A stretch of 55,228 nucleotides of DNA, counting the filler, from Sluysia triapertura (Eukaryota): NCBI GenBank assembly GCA_046118255.1. It is 3 parts of 3 records of this genome, joined end to end, with 100 filler letters (N's around TTAATTAATTAA, not from the genome) between each part and the next. Parts side by side here need not be neighbours in the genome. Positions count along the whole stretch, not along the records: positions 19,360 to 43,552 come from JBJNIA010195155.1; 2 more parts are not named here. The stretch is one strand, 5' to 3'. The number at the start of each line of letters is the position of its first letter. Within the stretch, counting starts at the first letter, position 1. This document shows positions 8,469 through 55,151 of the stretch, in pieces. The position numbers and the translations under genes were made by a program. Under the pieces are notes generated by a model. It saw nothing but the letters and a program-made list of their open reading frames with translations, made no database searches and had not been told where the DNA came from.

Positions 8469-8529
<61 letters not shown>

Positions 8530-13799: not shown

Positions 13800-13933
13800 N
13801 NNNNNNNNNNNNNNNNNNNNNNNNNNNNNNNNNNNNNNNNNNNNNNNNNNNNNNNNNNNNNNNNNNNNNNNNNNNNNNNNNNNNNNNNNNNNNNNNNNNN
13901 NNNNNNNNNNNNNNNNNNNNNNNNNNNNNNNNN
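13800..13933. other. Assembly gap (134 N)
   Basis: Run of N. Confidence 1.
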
Positions 13934-15127: not shown

Positions 15128-15191
15128 TGATTTTTTCACGATTTTCTTCTTCTGGTTGTTCATTGTTCATTGTTAGAAAAATGGGATCACT
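15128..15191 (-). CDS. SLC35F5: SLC35F5-like transporter, most 5' recognisable exon (N-terminal exons not found)
   Basis: ttttag|AGT GAT CCC...ATC A|gtaagt; SDPIFLTMNNEQPEEENREKI resembles SEPLYVPV of SLC35F5; the phase-1 end fits the next exon. Confidence 0.65.
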
Positions 15192-18100: not shown

Positions 18101-19259
18101 AATATCAAATATGTAATTATGCATATAATTTATTGATTTTAAACCTTAATTTATTACAAATTATTTGTGTACTTTTAATTTAATTTTGGACATTTAACTT
18201 TTAATTTATTTTATTTTGGATATCTAATTATTTTGAATTCATATACAAATGTAAGTAATTATTTGTTAAATTTATTTTTAATTTATCAACTTTAATTAGT
18301 GTATTAATTTTATTTTGTTTTAATTATTTTATTTTTTTATTATTATTTTTTTAAAATTTTATCAATACCGATTTATTGTGGATCAAGACTTTGGAAAATC
18401 TTTTTTTCGTTTTTCTTTAAGTTTAGGTACAATTAAGTACTTTTGTAAAATCGATAATATAAAACATTTTAGAACCATTTAAGGGTTCAATGCAAAATCT
18501 TTAATTAATATTTTTTATTGAAGATTAACCTAATTACTCTTAATTGAGTAAAATTGTATAAAAAAGAAAAAGAGCTTAACCTTGATCATTATTTTCAAGA
18601 ATTTTGTATTATAAAATAAAATTGTACGTTTTATATATATATATATATATATATATGTTCAACTTTATTTTATTAATTATGAGTTTTAAAATTTATTAAA
18701 ATCATTGTAACTGTTTTCACAAAAGCCGGTTTTTATCATCGGTATGCGTAATTTTAATTTAAAACGCGTTGTCTCGACTTTCATATAAATACAATTAAAT
18801 TACGCATAAATAAACTACTAAATTAAATTTCTTTCAATAAAAATTAAAATTTAAGTAATATATTTTTACACAATAATTGTCAATGTGTTAAACTTAAAAA
18901 AATTACTGTTCGCAACACACTATTCTGTCGATATTCAAATTCATGTCAGTAATGATGAAGAATTGTGAAAGAAATACTAAGTAAAAGCAATATAAATCAT
19001 TTACACATACCACATCGCGTCATTAAGACGTAAGTGGCTATTCGTTTCTTTGTTTTGAAAGATACATAATTTAATTAATTATAATGAATTAATTTTATTT
19101 AGTCTAAATAATAATAACCCAATACTAATACTGCATTTTTCAAAATATTTTAAGCACTTTTAGATGATTCACAATGTTTACAAGCATTTTAATGTTCATA
19201 TTACATATATTTTTTTACAATATATGCTAAACTAAAAAACATCTAACCAAAGAATGTGT

Positions 19260-19360
19260 NNNNNNNNNNNNNNNNNNNNNNNNNNNNNNNNNNNNNNNNN
19301 NNNTTAATTAATTAANNNNNNNNNNNNNNNNNNNNNNNNNNNNNNNNNNNNNNNNNNNNT
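19260..19360. other. Artificial join: N44-TTAATTAATTAA-N45
   Basis: Six-frame-stop linker centred in Ns. Confidence 0.95.
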
Positions 19361-21846
19361 CAACTTTTATAATTAAATTCAAATTGTTTTTAATCTCCAC
19401 TGTCTCAAGCGCTACATTCTGCGGTATAGCATTAGGTCCAACTCTGCAATCACATCCTAAAAAATTTATAAGATAATAATAACACTTAGAGTAAGTAAAA
19501 AAATTTTACAGTATGTTTATTCTGGAAAAATTTCATCCTTGTAAAGTCGTGCACCATTTTGATGATTTGAAACTCGAAACTACATGAAACGGATCTCATT
19601 TTTGCGTACACTTTCTATAATTACAATCTAAATCAGGATCTTGATTGATAAATTTTGGACTTGTGATGATATTGACGACATAAGTGCATAAGCTCGAGTT
19701 GTATTTTGTGATCTGATTAAGCTCTTGATTCGTTCCTGTTTCAAACGAAGCTCGTAATATATGTTGATGACCACTTTTGTTACAATAATAACGAATCATA
19801 CACATATGAATCATTGCTACAAAATTGTTGAAATTATTAATGTCTGCAAATGCAAACATGACATTGGCCAAAGGAGTCGCAATTTTACTCATGATAAATA
19901 AACCATAGATAAAATTACTAAATGTTATGAAGTACTTCATACTATTTTCCAGAGAATTAAGCTTATCAAAATTAGCCGCGATTGATTTTATTCTTAAAGC
20001 ATATGATTAGTTTTAATGTCCACATTTTTAATTACACATAATGTAGGGTTCTAAAAATTTCCTCGTGCGTCTTTCAATAACGTAGCGTTCGGGTCTACAT
20101 TTTCACCTTTGTGGCTTATGACTTTGATATATTCAATAAATTGTTTAATTTGAACAAACGTTTTGTTAACTTGTATTATACGCATCTTAATAACTTGTGT
20201 TGGACTACGCAATCTATCTAGACATAGTACAGGAACATTTGTATCTCCTCGTTTTTATTCATTTGATATACGTTTTCTCAAATTAATATTTTGATTATTT
20301 GAAGGTTCCTTTTGAAGAATAAGATCCACATAATATAAAGCATTTTTGTAATCCTTTAACTTGAGTAAAACTTATAATCCCTGATTTCAATTTTATCCGA
20401 AGCTTTATTCGTTAAATCATCAAACAATTTTATAGCCAAATTTAAGCATTATTTATTTTTCGATCGACAGAGTATGAACACATAAAAATTACGTATCTTT
20501 ATCCACACAACCTGACTGTTTTTCTTTAGCATATTTATTTCTAACACTCATAATTTCTTGATTTTTTAAAATTTTGTTTTTTGTTGGTCATCCAATCAGG
20601 GCTTTAAAAAGAGACTAATGAGTAAAATCTGTCCTGATTGGATGATGGCCAGAAAATTATAACTGACATACAACGTGTGATTGCTAATGATTAACCATCA
20701 TCAATATTGAAGATTTTGACGAGCAGTGTCAATACTAATGATGGCAGCAACTCATTCAACTATTTTGGATTATAAAAATTTTATAATAATTAATTTAATA
20801 ATTGGTAATAATAACGATAATATTATTATTATTAACAAACATAAATAAAGAACTTTTACACGATCTTGTCTTCTTTATATCTTTATTTCTTCTGACATAT
20901 AAATTGAACGGAATAAGGACGATAACGGAGTACACTATGCTCGAATTATCGTCGTTATTTCGTTGTGTGACATTGAATTCTCTAAAACTGTAGTAATTTT
21001 CTTAAACTTCTTGAAGGATTTAAACATGTTGGAATGAATTTAAAATGTATTTTGGAATAAACTTCTGAGTAGTAATTGTTTCGAAAGAATTGATAGGCAT
21101 AATTCACCTGTGAAGATATAATAAATTATATGAGTCAAAAATGAAATAGAGAATGATAGAATAAGTTCTTAAATATTGATTGAAGTTTAAGATTGAAAAT
21201 AAGGTTTAAGTATTGAAATATCGTGGATAAAAAGGTTTATTGAAAAGATTGTAATTTAATGAATCTAAAAATGATTGCAATACAACTCATTGTATATTTA
21301 AGGTGTTATTATACTATGTTTTGCGTAATTAATTTGATGTTTTGGTGTTGTAGTTTTATGTTAATGAAGATTATGCATAGATGAATAGTGCGTTTGAAAC
21401 GTTGTAATTGATTCGAAGGTGTGAAATGGGTATTTTATGTGTTTCAAGTAGATTTATTGGTGTTGCGGAATGGTGTTAACTGTAATTGTGGTTTATATGT
21501 TGTAAGTTTAAACAAATGAACTATTGAATAAATATTATTAAATATTAAGTATTAATTGTTATAGTGTACTGTAAAATAAAGGGTTCGAAAGAATTGAATA
21601 GATTATTTCGAATTTGTTTGTTATTGGGTAACCGTGAAAGTCGCGTACATGTTTTTGGTGGGTTGGTTAATGTAAATTGGTAATGTTGGGTGTAACTGTG
21701 ATTTAGATGTTGTGGATTTGTGAATATAAATTGATTTTAAAGAGCATGTAATAGATGGATGTATAACTGTTGAGATGTAATGAAAAGAGAAGGAAAAGAT
21801 GCTGGTTTTTAATAAATTTTAGTGGTTGTCAAGGTTGGCCACTACA
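19361..21846 (-). mobile_element. Family A element with Fis1-derived cargo, cut off by an assembly gap
   Basis: Terminus TGTAGTGGCCAACC at 21846; same base skew, AAGATCGTGT motif and hairpin module as 23032-25804. Confidence 0.75.
20291..20551 (-). pseudogene. FIS1: Captured, decayed Fis1 (mitochondrial fission 1) TPR domain
   Basis: Over two frameshifts and two stops: RNKYAKEKQSGCVDKDT*FLCVHTL / RSKNK*CLNLAIKLFDDLTNKASDKIEIRDYKFY / KLKDYKNALYYVDLILQKEPSNNQ, colinear with Fis1 EKAAGSVSKSTQF...RSK...QRDYVFY...RLKEYEKALKYVRGLLQTEPQNNQ. Confidence 0.85.
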
Positions 21847-23031
21847 TAAGAACGTGTAAAATAAAATAAGATTAAAACAATAAAAAAGCGCTAATACGAG
21901 AAAATCATTTTTCACAAAACATCCTTTTTTAGTAATACCGAGCGAGCCTGTTTTTATCAATGCTGTCACTGCACAGAAATTCCAAATTACTCATATTATA
22001 ATAGTTATGTTAAACATCAAATATATTTTTGATTTATATACATTTATATTTTATTATTATTTAATAAAAGTTTCCTTTTCTTTTATATAAAACATTTCTT
22101 GTATCTGTATTGACTGATTACTTTGTATAAAAATTACAATTAACCAATCAAAACAATTTCAATTAATATTAAATGATATAATTTCATAATATCCTCTTTG
22201 GAAATAAGAGAAAGTTGAATTATAAAAATAATTATAAAAATGAATTTAAATAATTTTAAATCAAGATTTGGTTTAATCCAGAATTTGTATTTAAAGAAGC
22301 ACAAGTAAAATCATCAGTGAATCACTTAGTAAGACCAAATTTCTAATTAAGGAGTTTCTAATATTTTGGAGAAAATATTAGATTCTTCATAACAAATTTG
22401 ATTTTAATAAATTTGAAAGAATTAATACTAAAAATTATTAAATGTATAGATTTTATGTAAAATTTTATAAAATATTATATTATATAATATTATTATGTAA
22501 TATAACGATACCATCCAACTGAAACCATTAAACAAACAAATCAATAAAAGCGACTGAGAACAATTAGTAAACATAATCCACCAAATGAACGAAAATTTAC
22601 ACAAATACGTTCGGATTTCAAGCAACCTTCTCTGGAAAGTAATAAACTACCAGATAAAATCAACATTACACTAAAAACAAGTCAATCAACTCCCAACAAT
22701 ACAGGTACCGACCACAATAAATCAATTATAAACCCTGTAGTATCGATAGAAGGTACTTTATCGCATTTACAAGGTCATAAAGCAAGACCCTTAAGAACAC
22801 CGCATACTACTCTCCAAACAACCACCACGTCGAAACAACTCATCAGACATAATGAAACACACACACACCTCATTTAGACAAACCTTCACAAACGAAATGA
22901 AGACATCCAACTCAAATACATTCAACATATAACACTTTACCACCTATACCACCAATAAACTATCACACTCATATACAACTCGCAAATCCTTTTTAACAAA
23001 ATCAAACACATACAATAAAGTAGTAGGGTAC

Positions 23032-25804
23032 TGTGGTGGCCAACCCATTACTTTTAACAGATTTTATTACAAATTTTATTCTAAACATTTCAAGATCACA
23101 AACTTTCAAAATGTACAATATATATTTTAAAATTCATTAAGAAACATTTTTTACATAATCCCATGTCAACATAATCAAAACCATATGTTTCGATATCAAA
23201 CTCACTCTCAAAATCTACAGCTCACATTCCTAAATTCAAGCTTAATACTAACATAACTAAAGTCATATCCTTTTCAACATCACATAACCTTTTAGAAATC
23301 GTCAAAACCGTTTCTATATTTTATCTTTTTTCAGATCCATTAAAATCAATTTCCATTTATCAAAATAATTTAAATCCACTTTCTTATAAAATTCAAACCA
23401 CAATGATATTCAAAATCATTAATTTACATTAAAAAGTTCATCTTAAATATTTTATTAATCATTTCATAACAATCCAATTACAACCACATTCGAAATTAAC
23501 TACCAGACATCTTCAAATCAATTAAAACATTCTGACTTCATGATCTGTTATCATTTAATCCCTAACATTACAGAAAGACAATATTACTTAAAATTATCAA
23601 ATTATCAATAAGTCAAATTTTCAACATTATACAAGCATCTTTTCAACTTACCAAAACATAACCTACGATCTATCTTATTCACATCCACTAAACTATTCTT
23701 TTTCAACATATGCATAATTCACAGTCGTTTAATATCCAAACATTACCTTCGTTCAAAACACCAATGGACATTTATCATCCATTTTTAACATTTATATTAT
23801 TTCAAAATACTTAAGTGTAGACCCAAATACATCTTCAGTAAGAAATATTAAGTAGCATTTAAAAATTCACTTAAAATTAGTAAACAGCATTTAAAATTAT
23901 ATTAAAACGTTTTACGCTTTGTCTTATTAGAATCACACTACACAATAAAATTTCATTGTAAACACGTAACAATAGTTTGTAACACCATATGTTCATGAAA
24001 TCTTAACATTCAACCTCAGACAATTAACTTCTGTAAACTAAGAAATTGATTTTTAAATATGTTAAGAAATACTATCAAATTAAGAAAAGAAAGATCATGT
24101 TCTTTAAGTTTAAAAGATGTATGTAATTTATATTAAGATAATAATAACATTAAAATTATTATTATTATTTTTATAAAAATTATTTGGTAGCTGTCATCAT
24201 CAATAGTGATACTTTTAGTTCACATGTTTGGTTTAATGTCACTATTGATGATGGTTGTGACGACAGTTAATTATATTTAAATTCTGTCGAATAACAATTG
24301 ATTGGATACCCAATCACCTCGAGTGGCTAATCAAAAAATGCAATTTAAAAATGATTTTATGGATTTTATAAGATGTGTTAAATACGACAAAATGAGATTA
24401 TAAATGAATAACAAATATAAACATAATATTCATTCGCTTTTAGAAGCTAATATGGCGTTATGAACAAATGAGTTTAATATATTGTCTTTAGAAAGTAAAA
24501 AAATTGATCGAAGATATTGCAATAATCAAATATATTTTGGATGATTTACTTAATTCATTTAATTGTATCCGAGAAGATTTTCAATTCAAATGGCTAAAAT
24601 CAATAAAACTAGTAATGATAGTAGTCGTAAACGATGTAAATGCTTACGTATTAATATTTTGGAACAAAACCATCAAATTGTCATTTATAATGTTTGTTTG
24701 CAGTTTCTTTATCTTAGGCTCGATATTATTCACCAAAATTTAGAAGTGATTACTCGGCTGGACAGCAATGAATATATACTCATTATAAATAGACGTCAAG
24801 TTCGTGATTTCAAAACTATCATTACAAGTGTTAGTGACAAAACTAGACTATGCATTAACAACCATATAGAAATATTATCTCAATGTCATTTGATTTCAGA
24901 AATAAAAAGATCAAAAGAAAATACCTTTTACGAATTTATTATCCGAATTTCTACTGAATTAATCAAAATTAGTAAAGATAAATTTCCAATGAAAAAAGAT
25001 ATGACGATTTGTACTAACGAGAATGATCTAAATCAGAATTTTAAGCTCACGCCAATAGTTGTTAATATAATCTGATTAGTTAGAACCATATAAAAGAAAG
25101 TTAATGGTCATTGTGCAAGTTGAAGGAAATCATATATTACATATAAAATTAACTAGATGTTGGAATCACAACGTTAGAAATGACGAAAAATCTCAAGTCA
25201 TATGTTCCTTAATAAAAAAATTAACAAGTTCAAAACATTAATTCGAACGCAGCGACCATTCAATACAGAATCGCCAATGTCAATTGAAGAATATTCGATC
25301 AAATGTCATCTGCTGATCCATTCTATATTTCGATGACACTAGACAACAACTACTTATGAGTACAGACTCTGGCTTGATCAACTCTTGTTCAATCGAAATG
25401 ATTTATCTAATGTTGTTCTCTTTGGTGGTTCGAGACAGAATGGTTTTCAAGAACTTCTTTAAAGTAATTTTTAATTGTAATAACACTTATAACATATCTT
25501 TAACATTTACTTCTTTTTTTAGAGTGTTACAAAAACGAAATTCGAAACGTTTGGCGAAATCATTATTAAAAAAGAATTTTCAAAAATAAACATTAAATGT
25601 CTTGTTATTAGTAATAAAATGGTTGTTAATTTGGTCGTTTGCTTTGTTAATAATTATTTAAAGTTAAAGAATTTTCGATTTTCCAACAAACAGGTTGTAA
25701 TGAAGTAAATAAAAATGAAAGTTGTATAAGTTCTGATAGTGATAACTTAAAAATAAATCCTTTTTAATATTAATAAAACCTGTTAATATCCGATTACCAC
25801 AACA
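23032..25804 (+). mobile_element. Complete 2773-bp solo-LTR-like element (family A) with an internal decayed cargo gene
   Basis: Termini TGTGGTGG...CCACAACA (7/8 inverted match); GGTAC duplicated at 23027-23031 and 25805-25809. Confidence 0.8.
24470..25708 (+). pseudogene. Decayed cargo gene of the complete family A element, with a 59-nt intron at 25464-25522
   Basis: Same-strand ORF pieces at 24504, 24563 and 25356; a phase-0 splice joins ORF 25356 to a 61-codon frame ending TAA at 25708, followed by AATAAA. Confidence 0.55.
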
Positions 25805-26479
25805 GGTACGGTTTCGCCACCAGATCGACCCATTCTTTTAATCCGGAACGTCCAAGATTTTAAAATCGCAGGATACGCCCAGCTAGGAGCGTCGTCTCAG
25901 AATGGGTAACCACCGCAGTATAAATGGAAGCCCATGAAATATTAGTCCACCCCTAATAAAACTTATGCTCAAGTATGCAAAACGAGCATACTGAGTAGAT
26001 CTTTAAGTATCCTTGAATCGTAAGGTATCACTATACGACCCGAAAACGAAGAGGCAACAAAGTCAAATTAAAAAGCCAAGCATCCAAACCGACAGAAGGC
26101 AGCACCACAAGGTTGTACAGTATCAGCTCAGAAATAACCTAGTCGGTCAAAACAAATCAATATCTCGTAATAATGACGGATGCTTTAAGACTCTAATATG
26201 CCAGCTGATCATAGTCTAACAGGCCATCAGAAAGTTATTACTCGAACAAATCAGTACAAGTTCAATAAAAGCAAGAACGACCGAAAACCACGAAAAGAAA
26301 ATACAAGTCAGTAAATATCTCAACCTATAGATATGGCCAACAGCATCACTGTACCATAAATACCGGAACAGACAAATTTCAATCAACAAAACGGAACTAT
26401 AAATTACGCGGTTGACAAGTGTAATGATAGAATTACAGTACAAATCAAATGCACTACGAAGCAACGTTACCATTTGCCA

Positions 26480-27245
26480 ACGTTCCCCATAAAAATATTA
26501 GGCAATATCATAAAGCATGAACACGTATGGCTTTCCCATCAATCTAAAGCCCTGTGCGAACAACTCACAGCATATTCGACGGGGCTGTAATCCGACGTCG
26601 ACGGCGAGATCCCCATAACCCAACAGAAATCTCAGAAGGCAATTATCTTCGACATGCCCTTCTTCACAGATGAATCCGGACATGGTTCCTTGTCGTTGAA
26701 TCCCATTTTAAAATGACAAAGCACCATGTTTATCCAACTACTTCCTCTCCTACCGCAACTTCTCCTAAGTAAGCAATGTAGCCTGATACAAACTTGCCTA
26801 CAGTCGGAAAATGATTACGATGACCTGAAACAAACAATCTTGGCACATTACCGTCCCAAAACAGAAAAGGTATTCCAATATTATTTCAAAGCGCAATCTA
26901 TAGGGACTTTATCCCCTTCTGAATTCTTAGCCAAGATCAGGAACGATCTTGAGCCATTCGGTTGAGAAAAGGATGAGAACCATGGACGCCATGCCCACAG
27001 AAGTCCAGGCTGCCTTCACCGGGAGCTAAATAGATAATATCAAAGAACTGGCCAATGGCGTACAAGGCGTTCAGACACTATAAACGCTATTCAAGACACG
27101 TCACATTCAAAGTCAGGCATCACCTTGGAATCAGTATCAATGCGGATTTATGCCCTGACTGTACAAGTGGCAGAAATTACCAAATTGGTAGCCGCCGGTC
27201 TTACACAATATCCGAATAAACCCCCTGCAATACGCCAATCCTCAT
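26480..27245 (+). mobile_element. Decayed Ty3/Gypsy gag
   Basis: PFF..WFLVVESHF...LLP...YDDLKQTIL...IGTLSPSEFLAKIR follows the Gypsy gag pattern PFW..WF..VE..F...Y..LK..L...LG..PS..L; higher GC than flanks. Confidence 0.7.
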
Positions 27246-27433
27246 TGTGGTGACCAACCTTATAGCTTTAATAAAACATACCAAAATCTCACAAATGTAC
27301 AAAAATAAAATTTTACTTCTAAAAACACCTTAAGTCTATAAATTCATGACAAAGAATATTACCAACTCATAGCAAGAACTCCATCAATAATACTTACCCA
27401 AAACCTCACAACATCCAAATCACAATAATGCTG
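27246..27433 (+). mobile_element. Family A terminus fragment that truncates the Gypsy gag
   Basis: TGTGGTGACCAACC followed by C/A-rich sequence. Confidence 0.6.
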
Positions 27434-27660
27434 TGTTGAGGACGAAAAATTGTTTAATTTAAATAAATTTTATTTTTTTAAAAGTGTTTAACAATAAAAT
27501 TACAAATGTCAATCAAAAGCAAATTATTTAATTTTAATTTTGAAATTACAAAAGAAATAGGCTTAAGGCCTGTAACCATTAACAAATTTAAAATGATAAC
27601 AAAATATGTTTTAAAATCGAAATATAACAAATAAAGAAACAATATAAATAAAATTATTGA

Positions 27661-28309
27661 TTATCGTCGCGGTGCTGCAATTGACATTCCCCCTTTTATT
27701 TTTATACGAACAATTTTCTTAATAAGTTTTTCTGATAAAATGTCCTTATCTACGAAATTATTCATATAAACTAGTTTTGTACATTTTATCAAATATCCTC
27801 TTATTACACATTCGTATCGGTGAATAAAAGATTGAAAAAATATTAAATCCCCTTCCCTTACTGCTTGAAAAATATCGAAAGGGTTATCAACAATTAATTT
27901 TTCAACAAATACTAAAGGCATATTTAATTTTTTCGTAATATCGTCTATATTTACACACCACTTTTCTTTAAGCACATAGGTTATTTGTAATGATATCAAT
28001 CTGAGATAAGAGTCAATTAAAATATTATTTATTAATCGTAAATTATTGTCATGAAATAACATATTACTAACACATGATTCAATAGTCTTTAAATCAACTT
28101 CTACATTATTATATAACGCGATTAATGAAACTTTATGGTTTTGGAGTTCTAATTCTTCATAAATTTCTTCATAACTTTAACTTGTTACTAGATATCAAAA
28201 AACTCATTATATCAATGCAATTCCTTTCGCTTTATTTATCAATTGATGAAACTTCATGTGTTCTCTTAAAATCAGAGGCTAATACCTTAATTTCATTCCA
28301 AGTTGTCAT
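27661..28309 (-). pseudogene. UFL1: Captured, intronless, decayed N-terminal domain of E3 UFM1 ligase 1
   Basis: MTTWNEIKVLASDFKR...K*SERNCIDIMSFLI matches WEEIRRLAADFQR...RLSERNCIEIVNKLI; after a frameshifting deletion EEIYEEL...VDLKTIE...LIDSYL...IFFQSFIHRYECVIRG stays colinear with UFL1. Confidence 0.85.
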
Positions 28310-28450
28310 TTAACAAATAACCAAAAGCAACGTTTAGAAATTTTAATCAATATCATAATAATTATTCATCATTATCTGAGCAATAAATTTATACTAACAA
28401 CAGTTTTATACTAATTACAGTATTAAGTAAATAATTATCTTATATAATTA

Positions 28451-29400
28451 TTACTGCTTATCGACTAGTTTAGTTGTTACTATTTTCTCATGTGTCTCTA
28501 GTTCCAAACTACGACGTCCATTGGTTGTAAGTGGCTGCTGAGATGCATAAGAATTGTACATACCACAACTAACTGAATCAGTACGTGACAGATTATCTAC
28601 TGATATTATCGTTCTTTGGTTAGTACCAGGCATATTAAGACCTGATGATTTGAAAATGCAGCTTCAAACTCATAAACTTGACCCATCAAATCATCGACTT
28701 TACTAAATGCATTTTGTTTCAATCTTCGTTCTTCGTTCAGCTGCTTTTTAATGGGTTTACTTCCATAGTGGATTTGTCGGTAACGGTTTTGCGTGTTTTA
28801 TATTGTCTGAAAGAACTTTAGTCATATTGACAATTCTGCTGTTCTTTTCTGTAATTTCTGACACTAATTGTTCAATATGTATTTGTTTCACCAAAGCTAA
28901 TTGTTGTTCTGTTGCTGCTTTTCTTTCAGAAGCATGTTTCTTTTCATTTTCTCTTTCATTTCTTTGTCAAAAGTTTTCCGAAAATCATTCAATTCTTTAT
29001 CAGTTAAATAATGTTTCATAAGTTGTCATTCTTCGACCAATAATTGTACTTTTGATCTGATTTCATTTGTATAAACGTTACATTTTTTTATATAGATCAC
29101 GTTCAGAACAAATATCACCTAATGCTTTTTGAAAATTGCATTTCAAGTATGTGTGATGACAATTAAAGATTGATTTCATAGGACTCATCCTTTGACGAAT
29201 GTGAATATTTTCTTGTTGAAGTGATGTCAAACTTTTCGATAACTTCAAATTACTTTTTGTTTTGTGTGTATTTGGATTGGTTTTGGTATTTTCATGTTTA
29301 TTAGGTGATTTCAAAACACGATCTTTATCGTATTCTGCAAAAAATTTATTGTTACACAGTGATGGATCGAGATCAAATATATTGTATAGTATTATAAAAA
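28451..29400 (-). pseudogene. Frameshifted coiled-coil coding fragment of probable host origin
   Basis: Glu/Lys/Gln-rich helical pieces in alternating frames, e.g. KKQLNEERRLKQNAFSKVDDLMGQVYEFE. Confidence 0.45.
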
Positions 29401-30769
29401 ATTGAAGGAAACAGAAAAAAATAGAAAGGCAGATTGTTAATAAAAGAAATAATAATAATGATAACAATAACGTGATTATTATGTTTATTAATACTAAAAT
29501 GTTGATGTTGAAATTATAAAATTTATTATGAAAATTATTGTAAAAGTTATTATAAAAGTTATTACTTGATAATCATACTATATAACAATAATGACTATAA
29601 TTATTATATATATTTTAATACGATCTGAATTTTAATAATAATAGTGGTAGTTCATGATAATTAGGTACGATGATCATGTTTGTTTTTTGAATGAGTTTAT
29701 TAGTTTGTTTAATAGTCTGTGTATATGTGAAGTGTTTTATGTGATGAAATGTGATGAATTTTGTGTGATTTCCCTACACAAGTAAAGAACAAATAAGCTT
29801 AAAGAAAATTTGATAACCGTTAAACAGTTAACCGTTATAATTGTAAAGTAAAAATACTGACCCTAGTTAATTACATTGCTGAAAGATTTAGGATATACTT
29901 TCGTAGCATTTTATTTTCTTGTGAGTACGTCTTTCTCGTAATATAAATCGTATTGCACAGGCGGACCCGTGTAATTTAATAGTTTTATAATTGTTTCAGA
30001 CTTAGAAAAAGTTGAACATTAATAATTCAATTAACAATAATTAATAGTTGGATATAACTACATACGTATAGACATTCAAATTAAATAATAAGTAGTAATA
30101 TTAATTTTTTGTGAAGTATTCAAATATTAACATTACAAATATATAGAAGTTTTTCTGTTGGACTTGGTGAATATATAAGATGTAAATTAAACCATAAATA
30201 ATAAGAAAATAAAAAATGACTAATGATTATTTTGTATATATTGAATAATCTTTCCAATTTTCTTAAAAATTATATTCTCTCATTCAGATTACAAGATGCA
30301 ACTTCCAAGCGCAAAGATAATAAATTACATAAATCCTTCTTACAATGGCATTGACCGTTCCTGTGGTAATAATGCCACTCCCCTTGCACTTCTTAATTCA
30401 AAATCCATTCCAAATTACCTTAAATGCGAAATAAATAATCATTTCATCTCGCATTTATTTGACATAAATCAACTGCAACCGCCATTAGTATTCAACGTTT
30501 TAAAGGGTTATCTATTAGACAAAGGCGTTGTAGTAATAGCTGCTGCAAGAGGAACAGTTGCATACTAGATTGCAAGGATTCACATCACTATACATTAAGA
30601 ATCTAACCAGCAATTGCAAAATTCAAATAGTAGTGGAGAAATTATCCATTATATGTGCCATTGTTTTAGAAAAACACGACAAGTCACTCAATTTAGCTCT
30701 ATTTCCTTTATTATATGAGAATGACATGGGTAATATCTATAAGTGGCTAAAACCAAGCATTGCCTAACA

Positions 30770-31260
30770 TTAGAATCACACCTTAAACTTCCCAACACAC
30801 ACCTTCAAATCAATCCAAAACATTCCAATCTTTCAACATTCAGTCTCGAATATCACCGAAAAACACTAACTTAACACTTTAAACCATTTTAGACATTGCA
30901 ATTAAAATAACCTTATGTAAAGATATTAAGTTAAAAGATTTATGTAGAGAAAGAATGATAATTACATAAAAGAAAGATCGTGTTGTTATTATTCTTCTAA
31001 GATTTTATGCATTTATTTAATTATTATTATTATCATTCAACCATTTTATTAATATTATCTAGTCTTATTATTTGTATTATCATCAGAAACATTAGCAAAA
31101 TTAAACATACATCGTGGTGATTTATTTGTCACCATTTTAATTATCATTTAGTTCGTTACAAGCTTTATGGTGACAGGTATACATTAAAACAGCACCCAAT
31201 TAACAATTCATTAACACATTAATTCTGATTTGATTGGACATCCAAGCAGTCTCATTACTT
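30770..31260 (+). mobile_element. Family A spacer and hairpin module, cargo lost
   Basis: C/A-rich tract, AAAAGAAAGATCGTGT, stem TGTCACCAT/ATGGTGACA, GATTGGACATCCAA. Confidence 0.6.
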
Positions 31261-32444
31261 TTACAAATGTAAGCATAAATGTGTGGATGTCCAATAAAAA
31301 GTCAAGAAAAGAGATTCATTTATATATGCATGTGGTGTGCAAATAATCTCTATACTTAATAATAGTTTTATTATTGTCACACAATTTGGTCTGTCTAAAA
31401 TATATAGCGCCCTTTCACTCCAGTTTAAAAAAGAATTAAATGTTAGGGTTATTTCAACTAGTTCAACCATTTTCACCTCATGTTTAAGGAAGAAATAAAA
31501 TCATTTTATTTCATTCATTTTAAAAAACATTAATAAATTAATTATGCTTATCAGTGATTGAGCGTATAGTCAACTGTTCAAATTTTTGATCGTTATAAAT
31601 ATATTGCTAATAAGGTATAATAGTGACTTCCACATTCTTTAGCAAACTTAACATCATTCTTAAATCCTGTAAATAAAACATAAATCACAGGCGAACTCAC
31701 TTATTTTCTGATTTAATGGAAAATAATCCTATAGAATAACCGAATTTTAAATCGCAAAGCTCTATCTACAGCTGAACCAAAATCTGACAACTCTTTACAG
31801 TTAGATAGCCAATAATCTGTGGAAAAATGTTGAACTGTTTTGAATTTCTTTGCTAAGGCAAATTTACATAAATATAGGAAAGAAGCAACTATTATTAATA
31901 TGTAAGAGCATATGTAAATTTAATAGACAATCAAACTTTCATGGATACTGCTAAGAGGTATCCCCAAATGTGGAGCCGAAGAAATTAATTGTATGATGAT
32001 TAAGGTAATTTTAAAAATCGCAATTCCTATAAGAAAAATGACTCGTCGAGATTTGAAAAGAAAAAAATTCTGATTTTAAATATAGAAAATATTCTAATTA
32101 TAGAGGAAATAAATCAGCAAACTATATTAACCTTAGAGGATTCGGAAATAATTTTAGATAGGTAATATTTAAGCCCTTAAAGAAGGAATAATAATCATTT
32201 TCGAGATACTAATAATTTTGGTTACTGTTGAATTAGTTTAGTATGAATTACCTTTTCATGTTAGGAATTTCTTATCTCATTAACATTGAAAAATCTTTTT
32301 CAAATTTTGGTACAATTTTTAGAAAGTGAACAAAAAATTAACCTTACTCTTAAATTTCTTTAAAAATTAATTAATCGGAATTTGTGCTTTTAGAATTTAA
32401 AAACGAAAAATAATCGAAATATAAATTAACTCCTGATTTCTTAC

Positions 32445-32667
32445 CTGAAACACATTCATTAAAGCCAGTAGCACCAAACCTAATGCAATAGACAACATCT
32501 GAGTACCAGTACCAATAATTGCACAAAATAACAAACGACATTTAATTGGTGGCCGAAATACGTCATTGTGGACACTTTTCCAACCTTTTTCTTCTTGTTC
32601 TTCTTCTTCAGTCATTTCGGTAGAATTTGGCATTTGATTATAATGTGCAAAATCTCTCCGAAGAATT
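32445..32667 (-). CDS. TM9SF1: TM9SF1 coding exon 2; later exons not found in the window
   Basis: RILRRDFAHYN...GWKSVHNDVFRPP...LFCAIIGTGTQML; ends CAG|gtaag. Confidence 0.92.
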
Positions 32668-32706
32668 CTAATATTAACAATGTCAATAATTTATTAAAAA
32701 CCAAAC

Positions 32707-33446
32707 CTTCCCATTATAAACATTATAAATGTCAATAATATAAATACTAAAACTAAAGAATTTGTAATTGAAATCCAATGAATTTCCAAAATCCTGGGAA
32801 AGAAATTATTATTTAAAATCAATACATTTCGATGAGAAGCTTCTATATTAGTTGGAACCCAACTAATAGAATAAGTAAACGTAAAATTTAGAAAATTTTT
32901 ATTTCTTAATGGTATCAAATCAATCGGATTAGTTTGTGTTGTAAAAACACTTCCATATATGATATTATTATTATTATATTGAATCTGAATATTATGATGC
33001 GTGTAAAACAATGCTTTGTGAGAATGTGGCAATATCTTACTTTCCTCCAAATTTCCAATAAATCCACGAAGCGGTATATTTTCATCTAGAACAAACTCAA
33101 AATAATATAATTCTTCAATAGCATCAATTAATTTTTGAATGTCTTTTTCTTGCAAAACTAAATTACAAAGTAATTTGCGATTCACATTTTCTCGAAAACG
33201 TAATTCGTACAATGATTCTGCCAAACGATCACCATCAAGCACTTCACCAAGACTTAGTTGTTTAAATGCCACTTTTTCTGGTCGACAAACAGGCAGCGTG
33301 TAATAAAGATAAGTTTCATGCGGATTGTAATATGGGCCAACTTTATTTACATATAAAATAACTTTTTCATTTAGTTCATATTTTTTAGGATTAAATCTTT
33401 GACATGAATAGATTTGAAAGAAGATAATTAAAAAATAAAGATTCAT
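32707..33446 (-). CDS. TM9SF1: Transmembrane 9 superfamily member 1 (EMP70 family), coding exon 1
   Basis: Signal-peptide-like start, VILYVNKVGPYYNPHETY.YY.LPVC, SLGEVLDGDR, LEIHW.SI.NS; 39-nt GT-AG intron at 32668-32706. Confidence 0.93.
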
Positions 33447-34187: not shown

Positions 34188-34490
34188 TTAGGCTCGTAAA
34201 TTTGCTACAGGATGCATGAGAATAGAAACTGGTTTAATAATAGGTAAGGGATGATCAGCAGATGCACATTCATCGGGTAGCGAAATACCAACAGAAATAT
34301 TAACTTTGGATGCATCAAACCATTCTCGACTACTGAAGCAGATTGTTGTATCCAGATAAGTTATGGATTTATCACGTTGATTTTGTGATTGTTGAAAATT
34401 ATCTTCACTTATACACGGTTTTGATCGACTCCAATGTGAAATAGGTGGATGCCATAAAATCACGCGGCCGTCTAAACACTTAGCTTTTAT
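34188..34490 (-). CDS. INTS4: INTS4-like terminal exon
   Basis: IKAKCLDGRVILWHP...LDTTICFSSREWFDASKVNI...LPIIKPVSILMHP resembles VQVLYPDGQAQMIHP...LITQVYLSHTAWTEACQVEV...IPFSKPVKVYIMP; 303 nt to TAA. Confidence 0.8.
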   Translation of the reverse strand: MKAKCLDGRVILWHPPISHWSRSKPCISEDNFQQSQNQRDKSITYLDTTICFSSREWFDASKVNISVGISLPDECASADHPLPIIKPVSILMHPVANLRA

Positions 34491-36647: not shown

Positions 36648-37550
36648 TGTGGTGACCAACCCAATATTTTAAAGTTTTATTCCAATAATACACAACAAAA
36701 TTACCATTCAGAACATTTCGTAATTCTTAATTTTCCCAAACATTTTTATGAAAGTACTCTCGAAAACATACACAGATGATCGATTGAGTCGAATTCTTAT
36801 AGATGAAGTTGATGGTGTTTGTCAAATGTTTCGTGACCTTAGATCAGATTATAAAAGTTTACATGTTCTTGAACAACAAATTTACGGCATGCTAGTGACG
36901 TGTTTAACCGAAACTGTGTCTGATAAAATCATTCGAGATGTAATGAAAATTTTGTTTATCAACTGAAACAGCTGTTCTTGGAGTCCACTACAACAGGCCA
37001 AATGTATTTCATGAAAAATATAAAACTGAATCTGATCCATATCAAAAATTCAATAAAATTTGTATATTCGGATCTATCTCTGATTATATAAATATTATCA
37101 ACAATAATGTTTACAAAATTAAACAAGATAATTCAAGTAGAAATCCTTGTATCAAAAAAATAACGTATCAGTATCCATATCAGTTAAATTAAGCCGGCTT
37201 ATGTCTAAAATTCGGCGTATATTGTCCTTATTTCCACGACATCTTCGAAGCAATATATCTTGGATCAACAAATCAATTCTTTTACGAACATTTGAGTCAT
37301 TTGAGGCTCTACAAAATTACACATCTGACCACAGATTCTGTAATGATCAATATTAAGCCTGATTGTTGCTTTAAAAATTTAGACGATTTTACTGATTTTT
37401 TATATTTGTATTTATATATAAAGGGAGAATCTAACACAGACATTCACAATGTGCCAGAACATGAGCTACGAAACCAAAATTTTAAAAAATTTAATAAACT
37501 TTAGTTTACGTTATACTTAGTTTATGTTACAATAAATATAGTTTTTTTAC
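36648..37550 (+). mobile_element. Internally deleted family A terminus followed by decayed ORF pieces (36748-37504)
   Basis: TGTGGTGACCAACC at 36648; three same-strand ORF fragments; AATAAA near 37530. Confidence 0.5.
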
Positions 37551-39148
37551 TTTGCATTTTTTAAGAAAAAATTAATAAAACAACAAAAATTAAGAACAAT
37601 GGTTGCTAACTTGATTTATAAAGACAATAAGTCAAATTTAATCCATGTAATTTTTAATAAAATAAACCACGTTATAAAGATAATGAAAATCACTTTAAAC
37701 CATAAACTCCTAAAGTAACTATAATAATAATAATAACTAGTATAAATTATAATTTCAGATTGAGTTGGTGTTTTTTGAGATGATAGAAGATCACATAAGT
37801 GAGATTATTGAAATGTGATATTGAAATTACATGATATAATATAAAAATTTTGTTAAAAATCTTTATGAAGGAAATATCACTGTCGGTTTTATTAAACTTT
37901 ATAAAGAAAACGATTAACCGGATCTAAATTGAACAATTTGAAAAATCAATCAATTCTCTTTTGAACGTCAATTCTTCAAATTCGCTCTTTTCTTATTAGG
38001 AATTAATGACACATGAATAAATAAGCTCATTTCTATTAAGATAAGCATTGATAATTTTGCTTCAAAATCCAGGTAAAATCATCGTTATTTAAAAAATCCA
38101 AGCATTGTATACAATTTATATTTATATATTGTAAACAATTAATAGTTTTTATCAAACATTTGTGTATAAAGAATATATCACTTTGATTTTTAATCTTCTT
38201 TTGTTAACAGAATAAAAGCTAAAGGTCAAAGAACGACGAGATAAGTTCAAGTTAAATTATAAAGAGGTAAACACAAACTATCATTAAAGTAATTTTAAAT
38301 TTAATTTTATTAAGTGTTTTTTGAGTTTTTTAATTTAACGTGCAAGTTAAACTCGTTAATTGCAGCAAGAAGTTAAGGACACTTTACTTAGTTTTTGACA
38401 ATTGACATCTTGTGAGTACGTTTTCCTTGAGATATAAAACGTGCATCACAAGCGAGCCCGAATAAGTTTTATAATTGTTCCAGTAATAGGATAAAATCTG
38501 AACATCTCGATTTACAAGTTAACAAGTCAGTATTGATTGAACATTTATGTGTTTTAAGTTTAAATTTTAAAATTTAATAAAATTAAAATAAAATATCTTA
38601 CTAAAAGTTTTGTAAAAGAATTTATTTGCAATTGCATACTAATAACATAGTTCTTGTGTGTTATAAATAAAGTGTCCTTGGATTTTTCAAGTTATTAACG
38701 TGCGGATAAAGAGGCGAGTACTGAATTAAGCCTCTATAATATATCACCTTTAAGTACTAAAGAGTAACAAAGAAAAATTTAGTTTTAAGTTAATAAAAGT
38801 TTAAGGTTTTAACTAATTTAAGTTAAAAAGGAAAAGAAGCACAACACAAACCAAAATAAAATAAAGATTAAATTTATTATTTAATAATAAAACTTTAAAA
38901 TATTTATTTATAATACCAATGATTCAATATCAGCATAAAAGTAAGTCTCTCTATATATAATTCCAAAAAAGAAAAGACTTGGTGTGAAATATGATTTAAT
39001 AATTACTTTAACATTATTGTTCTCGTTAACTATAGAAAAGGACAAAGAAATCATTACTAATTATTTTTAAACTTGCAGGAAATGCATTTGACTTTCAAGA
39101 TTTTATGAAAGGCTAAATGGCCGAAAAATGTTACGAAACGGTTAAATA

Positions 39149-39650: not shown

Positions 39651-39733
39651 TCATTTCAAACGATTAAAAACGTCTTCAATAATGCATGTGAATTAGCACA
39701 TTTAAGAACTCATTATTAAGTAAAATCACTAAC

Positions 39734-50071: not shown

Positions 50072-51877
50072 ATTTAAAAATGGAATAGAATTAAAAAGAC
50101 TATTTAACAGTAAAGCGCACAAATATTACTAAAGTAAACATTAAAAGTAAATTTATTCGCTATTTAGAATAAATAATTCTATAATGACTTTTTAAATAAA
50201 TAATAATTCTATATAAAAACAATATACGTGTTAGGTTGTCATCACAACCTTCTAAAATCATTTAAAATGTCATAACACTTTGGAATCATTTAAAATATTT
50301 TAAATTCATTTAAAAATTTATTTTCGAAAAAAGAAAATTCGCTTCTAAAAATATAATAGAAGCTTCTAGAATGTTCTATGTGACTAGTATATTGAAAATC
50401 GCCATTTGTAAATTTCCATTTTGTAAATATAACTGCCATTTTTCATTTTGCTGCATTGCTATTTTGGAGTTTTTTGGAATTTCTGGTGAATTATCGTAAC
50501 ACATTCTGTGATTTGGCAACATTCATCGAACAACAATTATTCGTTTCTACCTTCAAATTCCATGCCTTAGTAAATTTTATATTATTAAGATGAATTTCAG
50601 TTTTCGAAGTTTAAATTGTGAAGTCCTTAAAGTATCTAAAATTTAAAATAAAATTCAAAATGGACTTAAGGTTCTTGTAAAACTTAAAATTAGACATTGT
50701 AATAAATTTTCAAAAGGTTACAGTTACGATTATTACGAAAATAATTAAAATCAACAATTTCGCATGTATAAAAAATAAAACATAAGACACAAAAGTCCTT
50801 GTATTTGTCTGATAATATCAAAACAGTAGACTATTATTTTAACACTAAGATCAATTTTGATTAATCCAACGCTGAGACTAACTGCAAGACGAAAATCGTC
50901 ACGATATGAAATTTCTAAATGCATAGTTTCCGAATCCGACGCACATTTTTCAAAAGGAAATCTTTCTGAAGTTTTAATAGTTTTATCTTCCAAGTGTTGC
51001 GTTTTTTAACCTTACAGAATAAAGCAAATTAATAAGTGAGTTCATCAACGTTAGGGCTAGCCGTTGGGTTTAATATAAGGCAAATTTTCTTAGTGAGTTT
51101 TCTTAATAAGTTTCTTAACTTTTATGAAGTTTCTTATTAATTCTTAAAAAATAATTTAATAAGATTTTGCTTTGGTTCGTGAAAAGAACAGATAATTTGG
51201 TGATTTTACTTTGGTTCTTAAACTGAACCAAAAAAACTGTACAAAATTTTTAAGAGTAATGATTTCACGCTGGTTCATAAATTGAACCGAAAAACTATAC
51301 AAACTTTAAGTGTAAATAAAAATACTAATACTTCAAAATAATTTATATTAAAATACAAGTAGATTATTAATAAGATATTAGTTGGATTATCTTTATTTTG
51401 ATAATCTCCTGAATTTAAGTTTAAAAATTTATTTTACTAAGTTAACTTTAAATGTTAACGTGAATGTTTTAAAGAAGATTTTACCTGGATTATTGATAAT
51501 GTAGTTTCTGGGATGTTAATTTTAATGATATTATAATTCGATTAGAAGTTAGAATTAATTCTCTTATTAGCTTTATTCGAAAATATCTTAGGTATTTATT
51601 GAAATCTTAGTTTATTTTAAATTTTATTGTAGCTAACAAAATTACTGACACTTTTGCATTATAATTAACAAGTAAATAAGTATAGACATTGAGAAATTTA
51701 TTAAAGTTTTCAAAATACAGATTGTTAATGTTTAAATATTTCGTCTGTGTATGCCTTGAGATTTGCTCCATTTTCCGTTACCTGAAGACAAATTATAATT
51801 ATAATTATTATTATTCGAATAAAAGATAGTTATTGCTTTATCAAGTTTTGTTAATATCTCTTTTTGAGTATTTCCAG

Positions 51878-52815
51878 CTAACCAAGAATTAACACTTTGG
51901 AATAGTTGATTAATTTCGAATTCTTGAGCTTATGAATATATGGACAACTTATTCCGTTCTTCATACAAATAGCATCATCATCTACATAGTAGGGACAAAA
52001 GGGGATAACTTTAGTTAATTTATTCTCTTGTATAGCAAGATTCATTTTATAAACATTCTTGTCAGCATATTGTTTCGAATTGCAATTATCTTCTATATAT
52101 TGTTCAAGATATCTTCTGTCATCTTTATTCTGCTTGATATTGTCATCACAATCGTTATCTTTATAAAACTCGGTACGATCGTTACCGTCTTCATAGTGAT
52201 TGGAATTGTCATGACTATCTTTAAAGCTACTAAAATACTCGTTATCATATTTATAATATTGAGAATTGTGATAGTGATATACAGTATTGACATTATCATC
52301 TTTAGTTTTATCATCGAGGATATAATACGTATTGACTCTAAGCTTAATGTCTTTGTAATCATTAATATTGTTGTAGCGGAATTTAACATTAAAACTATTA
52401 TCTTTAAGTTTATAATCGTGGATGTAATTAGTGAATACAGTCTTCATGATCGTTGATGTTGTCATTTTTAGTTATATCATCGCAGATATAATAAATCTTG
52501 ACTTTAAGATTGTGGTCTTTGTTTAGCAATATTTAGCATCAAATTTATCGTTTATAAAATGTTTAGCTTGGCCGCTGTCATTTTTACATTTATGGTGTTC
52601 AACAATCTTTACATCAATCACACGGTCATTGTAATCATTGATGTCGCTATAGTAATATTTAATGTTAAATTTATGATCAATAAAATGTTTAGGATAATCG
52701 CTGTCATTTTCACATTTGTAACATTCAATGTCATTACATTACCGCCGTTTTTAAGCTCTTCAATTTCAATATGATTAACTTTATAGTGCTTAGAATTAAG
52801 CAACATTAACTGCAT
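51878..52815 (-). pseudogene. Cargo ORF with Asp/Asn/Tyr/Lys-rich internal repeats and a C-terminal CCCH-like finger; 5' part frameshifted
   Basis: CPYYVDDDAICMKNGISCPYIH (C-x9-C-x6-C-x3-H); repeats KCENDSDYPKHFIDHKFNIKY / KCKNDSGQAKHFINDKFDAKY / DNSFNVKFRYNNINDY. Confidence 0.55.
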
Positions 52816-53897
52816 GATAATTTGTTAACTGCTTATCACTTAAGCGTAACAAGAAGTGAGAGACAAAAATTTTCTATTACTAGTTATTGAATTGTGGTTT
52901 CGATTAATATTTGTCTTCCTCACTAATAAATTCTCTGTATCTCGATTGGTTTTCCAACAAAAATCGTTTGAAGAAAATGAGTATAATAACTGTTTTGGTT
53001 GGACAGCCAGTAAGGTTAGTTAGTTAATTAATAAAAATCAATGATTGATATCAATTGTAATGGCAACCATCAACAACATCGACACAAAATGCCACTGTTG
53101 ATGATGAAAGTAACTCGGTTGATTTTGAGCTGCATAATTAAAATTTTTAAATTATCTAAATTATATTAAAAATGATAATAATAATAATAACAATGTGTTA
53201 TTATTACTATTACTTCAATAAAAATCCATAAATCTCTTGAAAAAGAATCTTTACATAATCTTTCTTTCTTTCTTTTTCTTTCTCAACATATTAAAGTTAA
53301 AATTAATAAAGAACAAATCTTTGAAACTTAATATTTTGAAATATAATGAATGTTTTGTGTAACTGTTAGGATATAACTTACTATTCTTGAATTAATAATG
53401 TTTCAACTAAAGGTGTATTAGGGTGTAGATGGTTGCAAAGACTTTTAGATGTTTAATATTTTTAAGTGGGAGTAAGAGATAAATATGGGAATATTGAAAT
53501 GTTTAAGATGATTTGAAACTGTATAATGATTGGTTCTGATATTTTGACTGAAATAATGTTCTTGGCTGGAATGTTATTAAGGTATAGATACTTCTAAACT
53601 AAATACTTGGAATAATGTAGACGTTAAAGTAAGTGGTGATTGTCTTTGGCTATTAAGATTAAATAGTACCAGATGTAGATTAATGGTGTTTACTTTATTT
53701 TGGAAGGATTTGTTGATTGATTATGAATGTGGATGTGATTGAATTGTTTGAGATGAAAGGATGTAAAGTAAAATATTTTGAATAAATCTTTAATGTACTT
53801 TAATGGTTTAAGACATTATTGTGATTTGGATGTTGTGAGGTGTTGAGTAAGTATTCTCAATGAATCGTTTACTGTGAATTGACGATGTTATTTGTTA

Positions 53898-54136
53898 TGA
53901 AATTGTGGGTTTAAACTATTTTGAAAAGTAAGTTTTTGTTTTGATGTTTAAGAAGAAAAATAAGGTATGACAACGGTTGTGGTGGATTTCATAAGAGTGT
54001 TGTATATTGTTGAAAATGTGGGTTTAAACTATTTTGAAAAGTAAGTTTTTGTTTTGATTTTTAAGAAGAAAAATAAGGTATGACAACGGTTGTAGTGGAT
54101 TTCATAAGAGTGTTGTATATTGTTGAAAATGCGGTT
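53898..54136. repeat. Tandem duplication with a 113-bp unit, about 2.1 copies
   Basis: Units start at 53898, 54011 and 54124; about 3 mismatches between the full units. Confidence 0.95.
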
Positions 54137-55151
54137 TTAGCTATATTTCGTTAGTTTAAAATGGATTTAAAGATGTATACTGCATGTTTGAGTGTTCATA
54201 AGATTTTAATATGTTAGCATTTTTATAAAATTTTTAAGAATAGTGAGTTGGCCGCCACAGCGGTTTTAAAATACCGCTGAACTAACTATTATTAGAGAAT
54301 TTAATGCAAATCGAATGAAATTTGAATTGTTCAAAGATTTGTAAACTGATAAATCACTAGTTACTTGTTAACTGAATCTTTAAAATACTGTTTTTTATTA
54401 TCTTTAGTCTTATTATTGTATATAAAGCTTTAAAGTTATTTTTGTCTTTATTTAATTATTGAATGTTGTAGAGTAAATTATTAAAACTTTGAAAAAATTA
54501 CACTATTTGAGCATTTGTTAAGACCCTAACTAAGGAACATTCTATTTGGATAAAATATTAGCTTATATAGTTACAGAAACACCCTTTGCACGACATAACC
54601 GGACCCTGCTCAAAAATATTTTACCGTTGGTAAGTGATAGAAAAACCACAGCATAAGTGTAGCTATTATCGTGTATTAAAATGGAAAAATTCTTAGAGTG
54701 ACTTAAATAGTCTAACGTACAACTTAACCAAAACTCACCATAATAGATATACCATCCTGTTGCTTAGCCAGAAGAAGATAATTTTATAAAAACCATGACT
54801 GTTTTATCTATTAGATTTATACCTACCTTGATATTGTTCATTTTTCTCGATATTTAATATTTAATGATATTTTGATTGAGTATTTTTAGAGTTTCTACGC
54901 ACATAGATTTGAATATCTATTTGTTTTGAATAGTGACTTTTTTGATGGATTGTTTAGAAAATATTTTTTCGATTTTAGGCATGAAAAAATTTTTATTTGT
55001 GTAGAAATTACATATCTTTTCAACTGAAAATCTAAAAAAAATAATTATGATTATTATTTTTTTGCTACAAAATGTTACTTTCTCCCAAATTTCTATTTAC
55101 TGTATCATTGATAAACAACGGAGAAATTTAAAATACATCTTATTCGTTCCT

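Follow-up and report, generated by a model that had tools for sequence, protein, structure and literature searches.

A conserved two-hairpin module stands upstream of cargo in a repeat family of Sluysia triapertura and may be the RNA leader of giant long terminal repeats

Members of a repeat family in the genome of Sluysia triapertura carry a module of two hairpins just upstream of cargo, that is, of sequence that looks coding on the sense strand. The family was analysed in a 55,228-nucleotide stretch of DNA from assembly GCA_046118255.1 (the window), which has about 25% GC and comes from the compact genome, with tiny introns, of a fast-evolving animal. The family start, TGTRGYGRCCAAC, occurs at five places in the window compared with 0.03 expected, opening copies A, B, C and D and a 5' piece termed E1 (Table 1). 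Copies A, B and C have a common layout. C/A-skewed sequence occupies about the first 1 kb and is followed by a purine-rich motif block and an AAT tract, after which come hairpin 1, hairpin 2 and the cargo. Hairpin 1 is offset by 1,104-1,164 bp from the 5' end in these copies and the hairpin pair occupies a fixed position 1.1-1.3 kb into the element. The first kilobase of copy A aligns with that of copy C at a score of 274 (167 for shuffled sequence), and the motif block shows a mean pairwise identity of 0.65 among four copies compared with 0.50 in shuffles. The motif block and both hairpins reappear at 30.9-31.3 kb in copy E and E1 likely belongs with these hairpins at 31.1 kb. A shared 3' end of copies C and D was considered and dropped, as the tail alignment is not above shuffles. 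Copy C also contains a 113-bp tandem duplication (97% alike, 53898-54139) in its C/A-rich part. A possible distant relative of the family at about 47040-47962 on the minus strand has a TGTGGTTGTTCAAC start, 700 bp of C-skewed sequence, a purine block, a long AAT tract and a hairpin in which CCAAT and a 14-bp palindrome occur; neither a cargo-like frame nor a target duplication was seen in it.

Table 1. Features of the repeat family in the window. Folding z-scores are given for the cargo-sense strand and its antisense.
Feature	Position	Strand	Remarks
Copy A, complete TG..CA element of 2,773 bp, interpreted as solo LTR	23032..25804	+	Ends TGTGGTG/CACAACA, 5-bp duplication, X1 contigs; family start at 23032
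Target-site duplication, left copy	23027..23031	+	Right copy at 25805-25809
C/A-skewed first kilobase of copy A, putatively U3-like	23032..24031	+	GC skew -0.55 up to 24031
Purine-rich conserved motif block of copy A	24058..24125	+	Followed by AAT/TTA tract to ~24185
Hairpin 1, copy A	24193..24255	+	15-bp perfect core; z -4.8 sense, -5.2 antisense
Hairpin 2, copy A, shortened	24298..24334	+	
Cargo of copy A, broken coding-like sequence on the sense strand	24335..25804	+	
Copy B, 3' end lost in N gap	19362..21846	-	Start motif and layout; family start at 21846
Hairpin 1, copy B	20694..20745	-	z -4.1 sense, -1.2 antisense
Hairpin 2, copy B	20585..20651	-	13-bp perfect core; AUG in 3' arm (20591)
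Broken Fis1-like cargo, copy B	20249..20578	-	Pfam and PDB matches
Copy C, ~2.77 kb, 3' end approximate	51490..54259	-	No target duplication; family start at 54259
Hairpin 1, copy C	53066..53108	-	z -2.8 sense, -1.7 antisense
Hairpin 2, copy C	52947..53009	-	z -1.9 sense, -3.1 antisense
Cargo open reading frame of copy C, CCCH-like finger	51878..52471	-	Pfam zf-CCCH_UNK, E 0.0012, below curated cut-off
Hairpin 1, copy E	31124..31178	+	Stem displaced outward with unpaired inner part; z -4.4 sense, -3.0 antisense
Hairpin 2, copy E	31233..31295	+	12-bp perfect core; AUG in 3' arm
E1, 5' piece of family member, interrupted by element F	27246..27431	+	Family start at 27246
Copy D	36648..37750	+	Family start motif, cargo after ~80 bp; U3 body and hairpins absent

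Copy A is the only complete element delimited by a target duplication and reads as the solo long terminal repeat (LTR) of a Ty3-type element, without placement in the CsRn1 clade. Its TGTGGTG..CACAACA termini are directly flanked by the 5-bp duplication. Contigs of one contig run (X1), which may derive from the source sample, were compared with the copy A region and 2,379 matched. Unrelated sequence precedes 23032 in 39 contigs, which confirms the 5' end, and one contig joins 23027 to 25853, representing the interrupted element without copy A. Summed X1 depths, which are not copy numbers, reach 2,100-21,700 across the greater part of the first 0.9 kb (the most repeated part), 320-1,070 over the motif block and hairpins, 280-930 over the cargo and 27-78 over the last 200 bp; the locus's own contig has a depth of 16. 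Among the 40 of 480 X1 variant rows listed, none falls in the stems. A single unit with a target duplication and mosaic host cargo, and with no second LTR in the window, could also represent a Pack-type DNA transposon with Ginger-like TGT..ACA ends, in which the stems would be subterminal or promoter structures. This is very improbable, as copy A has no terminal inverted repeat beyond 3-5 bp and two ends that are unlike, its 3' end is far less repeated than its 5' end in the X1 contigs, and the 5' end fits the att motif of an LTR.

The hairpin module contains the longest perfect stem in the window. A scan for perfect stems of at least 10 bp with loops of up to 80 returned 41 in total, the longest being the 15-bp stem of copy A (24195-24209/24239-24253) that the sequence-only reading preceding this analysis had described. 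Only three perfect stems of at least 12 bp with at least five G/C are found, every one of them in the module (hairpin 1 of A and hairpin 2 of B and E), compared with none in each of 40 block shuffles. The same reading had recorded TGATTGG-atac-CCAATCA as a second hairpin of copy A, located here at 24299-24316, and the pattern TGATTGG-N0-12-CCAA has four matches at three places in the window against 0.24 expected. Its three counterpart sites in B, C and E are all present where, and on the strands on which, it had put them, and both internal mismatches of the copy B stem are indeed G-U pairs on the cargo-sense strand. In A, C and E it had placed the second hairpin correctly but covered no more than its left arm. 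The homologous hairpin 2 possesses a 12-15-bp stem and a 30-40-nt loop in B, C and E. In copy A the loop is absent together with four 3'-arm bases, and the left arm consequently folds on itself (24299-24316), which is what had been recorded. A hairpin-2 model built from B, C and E returned the copy A site as its top non-training match, a weak one (E = 0.97), and no further copy in the window. Searching for further copies with the hairpin-1 pattern yielded no match in viral contigs and one chance match in a prokaryote-like coding region (L001) without similarity to the window.

Both hairpins are real, and selection on their structure is supported. Pairing was compared across copies A, B, C and E using hand-set registers for both hairpins and one real copy as the reference. 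Two-sided Watson-Crick changes number five in hairpin 1 (1.8 expected, p = 0.02) and seven in hairpin 2 (2.1 expected, p = 0.001, hand registers), while broken pairs number 10 in each, compared with 15 and 16 expected, respectively. Automatic alignment of hairpin 2 from B, C and E reproduced the hand register, with 5 of 15 pairs changed on both sides; this number was reached in 2 of 500 shuffles, and controls with slid partners gave 0-2. The arms are 0.57-0.69 identical between copies compared with 0.39-0.45 when shuffled. Identity exceeds the shuffled level over the initial 40 bp, over the motif block and in each of the four arms, whereas it is at that level in the spacer, in the hairpin-2 loop and, beginning with the 100 nt directly behind hairpin 2, in everything that follows. 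Two-sided changes without strand bias, as seen in hairpin 2, would also be predicted for old foldback duplications whose pairing is not under selection. Template-switch correction in replication or reverse transcription is a mechanism that can keep the arms of such foldbacks alike. An origin of this kind is improbable here given that two hairpins occupy the same place in four copies though their spacers have diverged to the shuffled level, and that many imperfect pairs persist, those in hairpin 1 being G-U. The hairpin-2 loops of B, C and E have the word CTCATT in common (20620-20626, 52977-52983 and 31250-31256), and its complement is located just upstream of hairpin 1 in B and, weakly, in C and E. 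Kissing-loop palindromes, looked for by eye, differ or are missing copy by copy.

The sense strand is favoured in hairpin 1. Its non-Watson-Crick cells in A, B and C comprise seven G-U, no A-C and three other combinations (p = 0.016, with boundaries chosen post hoc), and its folding z-scores are better on the sense strand in three of four copies. The proposal of the sequence-only reading that the module is a selected RNA structure stands with respect to selected pairing, as evidenced by conserved arms and two-sided changes, while its sense-strand argument holds for hairpin 1 and fails for hairpin 2. A middle hairpin is strong in A and C only. The GC-skew flip, upstream of the hairpins in A, downstream in B and unusable in C, was dropped as a marker of the start site due to this inconsistent position. 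At an AT content of 75%, start-site and poly(A) motifs are uninformative.

The module could instead act as DNA. In this case the module would lie in U3, upstream of the start site, with inverted arrays of factor sites or a cruciform forming the cargo promoter. CCAAT is a known LTR promoter element (PMC2664473). The proposed sites are a TGG-N4-CCA palindrome repeated in both hairpin-2 arms, the CCAAT boxes and a CATC(C)AAT-like motif in all four arms. Each copy keeps one or two CCAAT in hairpin 2, with a background of 2.1 per kb, the TGG and CCA blocks are kept in nearly every slot, and hairpin 2 is strand-neutral. In addition, the hairpin-2 loop of B, C and E contains TCATT, a word resembling the initiator consensus. 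However, of 16 possible CCAAT slots 7 are filled and none is filled in all copies (A 1100, B 0110, C 0001, E 1001), copy C has lost both inner boxes through a change that preserves the pair, bases inside and between the blocks co-vary on both arms, which binding sites alone would not need, and hairpin 1 shows the G-U bias. The paired inverted CCAAT promoter offered earlier is weakened by the slot pattern, and we consider a DNA promoter in general unlikely, if worth keeping in view.

Covariation and G-U evidence would also fit with an RNA structure of the 3' end. Here the module would lie in U3 and, of the two LTR copies in the genomic RNA, fold in the 3' one alone, guiding 3'-end formation, export or localisation. 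Stem-loops serving polyadenylation are known in HML and human T-cell leukaemia virus (HTLV) LTRs (PMC2664473), and A-rich runs follow hairpin 2 in A, B and E. No conserved AATAAA is found beside the stems, however, with E alone having one, and such a function leaves the AUG and open frame out of hairpin 2 and the sense orientation of the cargo unexplained, making it distinctly unlikely. Small-RNA precursors, also suggested from the sequence, fare worse. Hairpin 1 of A would suit a microRNA or other small-RNA precursor with its length of about 65 nt and 19-bp stem, and Rfam microRNA models give weak scores of 19.9-31.2 bits, far below their gathering thresholds of 65-100. In B, C and E the stems are short and variable (9-17 bp, with large loops), arm sequences vary by copy and no Rfam family is matched at gathering score, so that we regard this origin as exceedingly improbable. 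ARAGORN detected no tRNA-like sequence at threshold.

Cargo begins where conservation ends. No homology between copies extends beyond the 3' base of hairpin 2, the point at which sense-strand cargo starts, and the module represents the last conserved stretch before it. In the cargo of copies A to D and of the separate element F, stop-free coverage is 0.69-0.91 on the sense strand compared with 0.26-0.32 for shuffled sequence and 0.26-0.64 on the antisense strand (0.82, 0.27 and 0.26, respectively, in copy A). The downstream sequence of copy E is not coding-like on the sense strand. The copy B cargo begins with a broken Fis1 piece (Pfam Fis1_TPR_C, E = 9.8e-9; PDB Fis1 residues 6-120, E = 1.2e-5), with an alignment that starts at 20578, seven bases from the hairpin-2 base, and whose first ten aligned residues are weak; a second open reading frame (ORF) in this copy has no database relative. 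The copy A cargo is itself repeated in X1 contigs and has no Pfam family, PDB match or database relative. A resemblance of it to HSP70 noted by eye was rejected, having no Pfam or PDB support. For the cargo ORF of copy C, one spurious match only was found among 1.84 billion representatives. None of nine window proteins is present in the protein cluster collection.

Further features were observed in the cargo regions. Copies C and D have a C-P-Y-x-C-x5-C-P-Y-x-H finger in common (51878-52471, minus strand; 36648-37750, plus strand) in cargo that is otherwise unrelated, and copy C contains tandem D/N/K/Y-rich repeats at 52287-52739. Element F (27432-29780, minus strand) is separate from the family and nested in E1. 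It possesses TGTGTAGGG..ACACA ends, a C/A-rich start and sense cargo that includes part of UFL1 (Pfam, E = 5.6e-20) and a further piece resembling a coiled coil, and has no hairpin module and no target duplication. The UFL1 piece has no database match at 1e-5. Neither the Fis1 nor the UFL1 alignment shows an obvious gap of intron size; host introns are tiny (ca. 39 nt in TM9SF1).

Start codons are found within the stems. The 3' arm of hairpin 2 in B and E contains an AUG that pairs with the left arm and begins the sequence M-T/S-N-K-K. The frame set by this arm remains open for 24, 14, 35 and 17 further codons across the four copies (Fisher p = 0.02) and matches the frame of the ATG at 24404 in copy A, which is suggestive of a start codon within hairpin 2 that would open the downstream frame. 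AUGs in hairpin 1 open upstream ORFs (uORFs) of 5-10 codons in all four copies (10 codons in A, with AUGs in the 3' arm), and these may be a mere by-product of CAT repeats in the stem. A ribosome shunt was rejected: the hairpin-1 uORFs end 18-45 nt before hairpin 2, at no fixed short distance.

The explanation we favour, to which we give about an even chance, is that the module represents the R-region or 5'-leader stem-loops of a giant Ty3-type LTR with host-gene mosaics inside the LTR. The C/A-rich kilobase would correspond to U3, and transcription would start upstream of hairpin 1, within or close to the motif block and the AT tract; these and the other U3/R/U5 borders, like any function of the module, are what we infer. 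The hairpins would then be the first structure of the RNA and act like retroviral R-region stem-loops and the 5' domain of Ty1, with potential roles in RNA stability, in strand transfer or packaging, and in control of the first start codon, located in B and E in the 3' arm of hairpin 2. Template switching in reverse transcription would capture pieces of host mRNA between the leader and the 3' att end of the LTR, and these would become part of the LTR and hence persist in solo LTRs such as copy A. The stable stem itself may fix the capture junction. Strand invasion at the base of strong hairpins, which has been reported (PMC3187697), would explain why homology ends at the hairpin-2 base, and loss of elements without an intact leader explains this equally well.

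Stem-loops in LTRs are ordinary and it is the setting that is unusual, with a Ty3-type terminal repeat about eight times the length usual in the CsRn1 clade in which everything downstream of hairpin 2 is replaceable host-derived coding sequence. If the leader explanation is true, each solo LTR amounts to a chimeric gene ready for use, while the hairpin provides a concrete, testable reason for recurrent capture junctions at one place. In the accessible literature searched, no report of host-gene mosaics inside animal Ty3 LTRs was found. A bolder extension, which we think rather unlikely, is that these LTRs are exchangeable expression cassettes. Each of them, even as a solo copy, would bring its own promoter and a leader with two hairpins, the second of which locks up a start codon in its 3' arm. 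The hairpin-2 stem would also be a fixed landing point at which reverse transcriptase exchanges host mRNA pieces, subfamilies would differ by the protein expressed from inside the LTR, and hairpin 2 would switch the RNA between cargo translation and packaging.

Several observations weigh against the leader explanation and its supports. The covariation comes from four copies only. Omitting E leaves two two-sided changes in hairpin 1 (0.45 expected, p = 0.06), two of the five double changes fall within the unalignable inner part of E, and automatic alignment of hairpin 1 misregisters copy C (-2.4 kcal/mol). Two-sided changes exceed the null in both stems, as the sequence-only reading had asked of an RNA structure. 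The G-U excess does not extend to all 37 core columns, which contain nine G-U and seven A-C. Folding z-scores of hairpin 2 favour neither strand, and an extra hairpin just upstream of the motif block, strong in copy B only (20896-20965), folds better antisense (z -7.1) than sense (z -4.2). The hairpin-2 AUG is present in two of four copies, A being without those bases and C differing there, and the frame it sets differs by one base from that of Fis1 in B and is the longest of the three only in A and C. Copy D and element F carry cargo without the module, which is therefore not required for the presence of cargo in a given copy. With regard to the element itself, a target duplication is convincing in one of six elements tested, namely A, and in none of B (whose end lies in the N gap), C, D, E and F. 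Nowhere in the window was a pair of these LTRs found in one element, nor a primer-binding site or gag-pol linked to them. Finally, copy A has a 5-bp duplication in contrast to the 4 bp of PwRn1 in the CsRn1 clade (PMC2582038).

Copy A is inserted into another element that looks like an ordinary Ty3-type LTR plus gag (ca. 22497-23031 and 25810-27245, plus strand). This interrupted element has a C/A-rich start, TATAAAT at about 25920, AATAAA at about 25957 and a hairpin at about 25965-26000, followed by a broken DUF7041/Gag-like frame that is cut at 27246 by E1. The Gag-like remnant (26.6-27.2 kb) belongs to it and is associated with DUF7041 and Gag clusters at 0.91-0.93, a lead only, with no Pfam match. 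X1 contigs and the duplication show that copy A was inserted into this element, ruling out copy A as the 5' LTR of the remnant. Host genes in the window include TM9SF1 (31700-33446, minus strand, with a 39-nt intron), which at 32.4-33.4 kb is 47-55% identical to every animal relative among the matches listed, and a C-terminal piece of INTS4 (34188-34490, minus strand; Pfam E = 1.9e-6). Exons at 3851-10751 on the minus strand resemble an SLC35F-type transporter. A repeat pair at 9141-9423 and 39365-39651 is 83% alike and contains a frame that we take to resemble the C-terminus of mariner-type transposases. Short dispersed repeats are located at 11447-11607, 43472-43552 and 50229-50378, and also at 29917-30019 and 38408-38505.

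Several known systems resemble the module or the repeat that carries it. R-region stem-loops occur in retroviral LTRs as the lentiviral TAR and poly(A) hairpins, the R stem-loop of murine leukaemia virus (MLV) and the HML R loop (PMC2664473). As in these, two tandem stems lie inside the LTR and structure is kept better than sequence; in contrast, the context here is Ty3-type, the loops neither contain nor adjoin an AATAAA, captured coding sequence extends for 1.4 kb behind the stems, still within the repeat, and the position in R is itself inferred. The 5' TIPIRT domain of Ty1 serves translation, packaging and reverse transcription (PMC5454406) and similarly is a structured 5' leader holding the first start codon, whereas here no pseudoknot or kissing-loop complementarity was found and the next frame is host-derived cargo instead of Gag. 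The CsRn1 clade of Ty3/gypsy elements has the 5' att motif TGTGGYG and a mean LTR length of 330 bp (PMC3601003, Tables 1 and 3). This motif is exact in four of the five family starts, with one mismatch in B. Copy A agrees with the 3' att motif MSYYAMA at five of seven positions and, at 2,773 bp, is far from the clade mean. The DUF7041/Gag-like remnant adjoining copy A would be a further likeness and is a lead, but it is part of the interrupted element and not of copy A; neither a tRNA-Trp site nor a CHCC Gag linked to the hairpin-bearing family is present in the window. Pack-type transposons with terminal inverted repeats (PMC8277862) resemble copy A as single non-autonomous units with mosaic host cargo and differ by those repeats, which copy A does not have.

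Foreign sequence has entered retroelements by other routes. In the BARE-2 LTR chimera foreign sequence entered an LTR (PMC13317346), coming from another retrotransposon. Reviews place captured genes between the LTRs or after pol (PMC6431247). LTR-mediated retroposition, in which host sequence is captured by template switching (Tan et al., PMC5131818), likewise yields sense-strand pieces of several host genes, each of them partial, whose number grows along with the element. Its retrocopy is internal and flanked by element sequence, whereas in the family described here the host pieces are apparently part of the LTR and persist in the solo copy.

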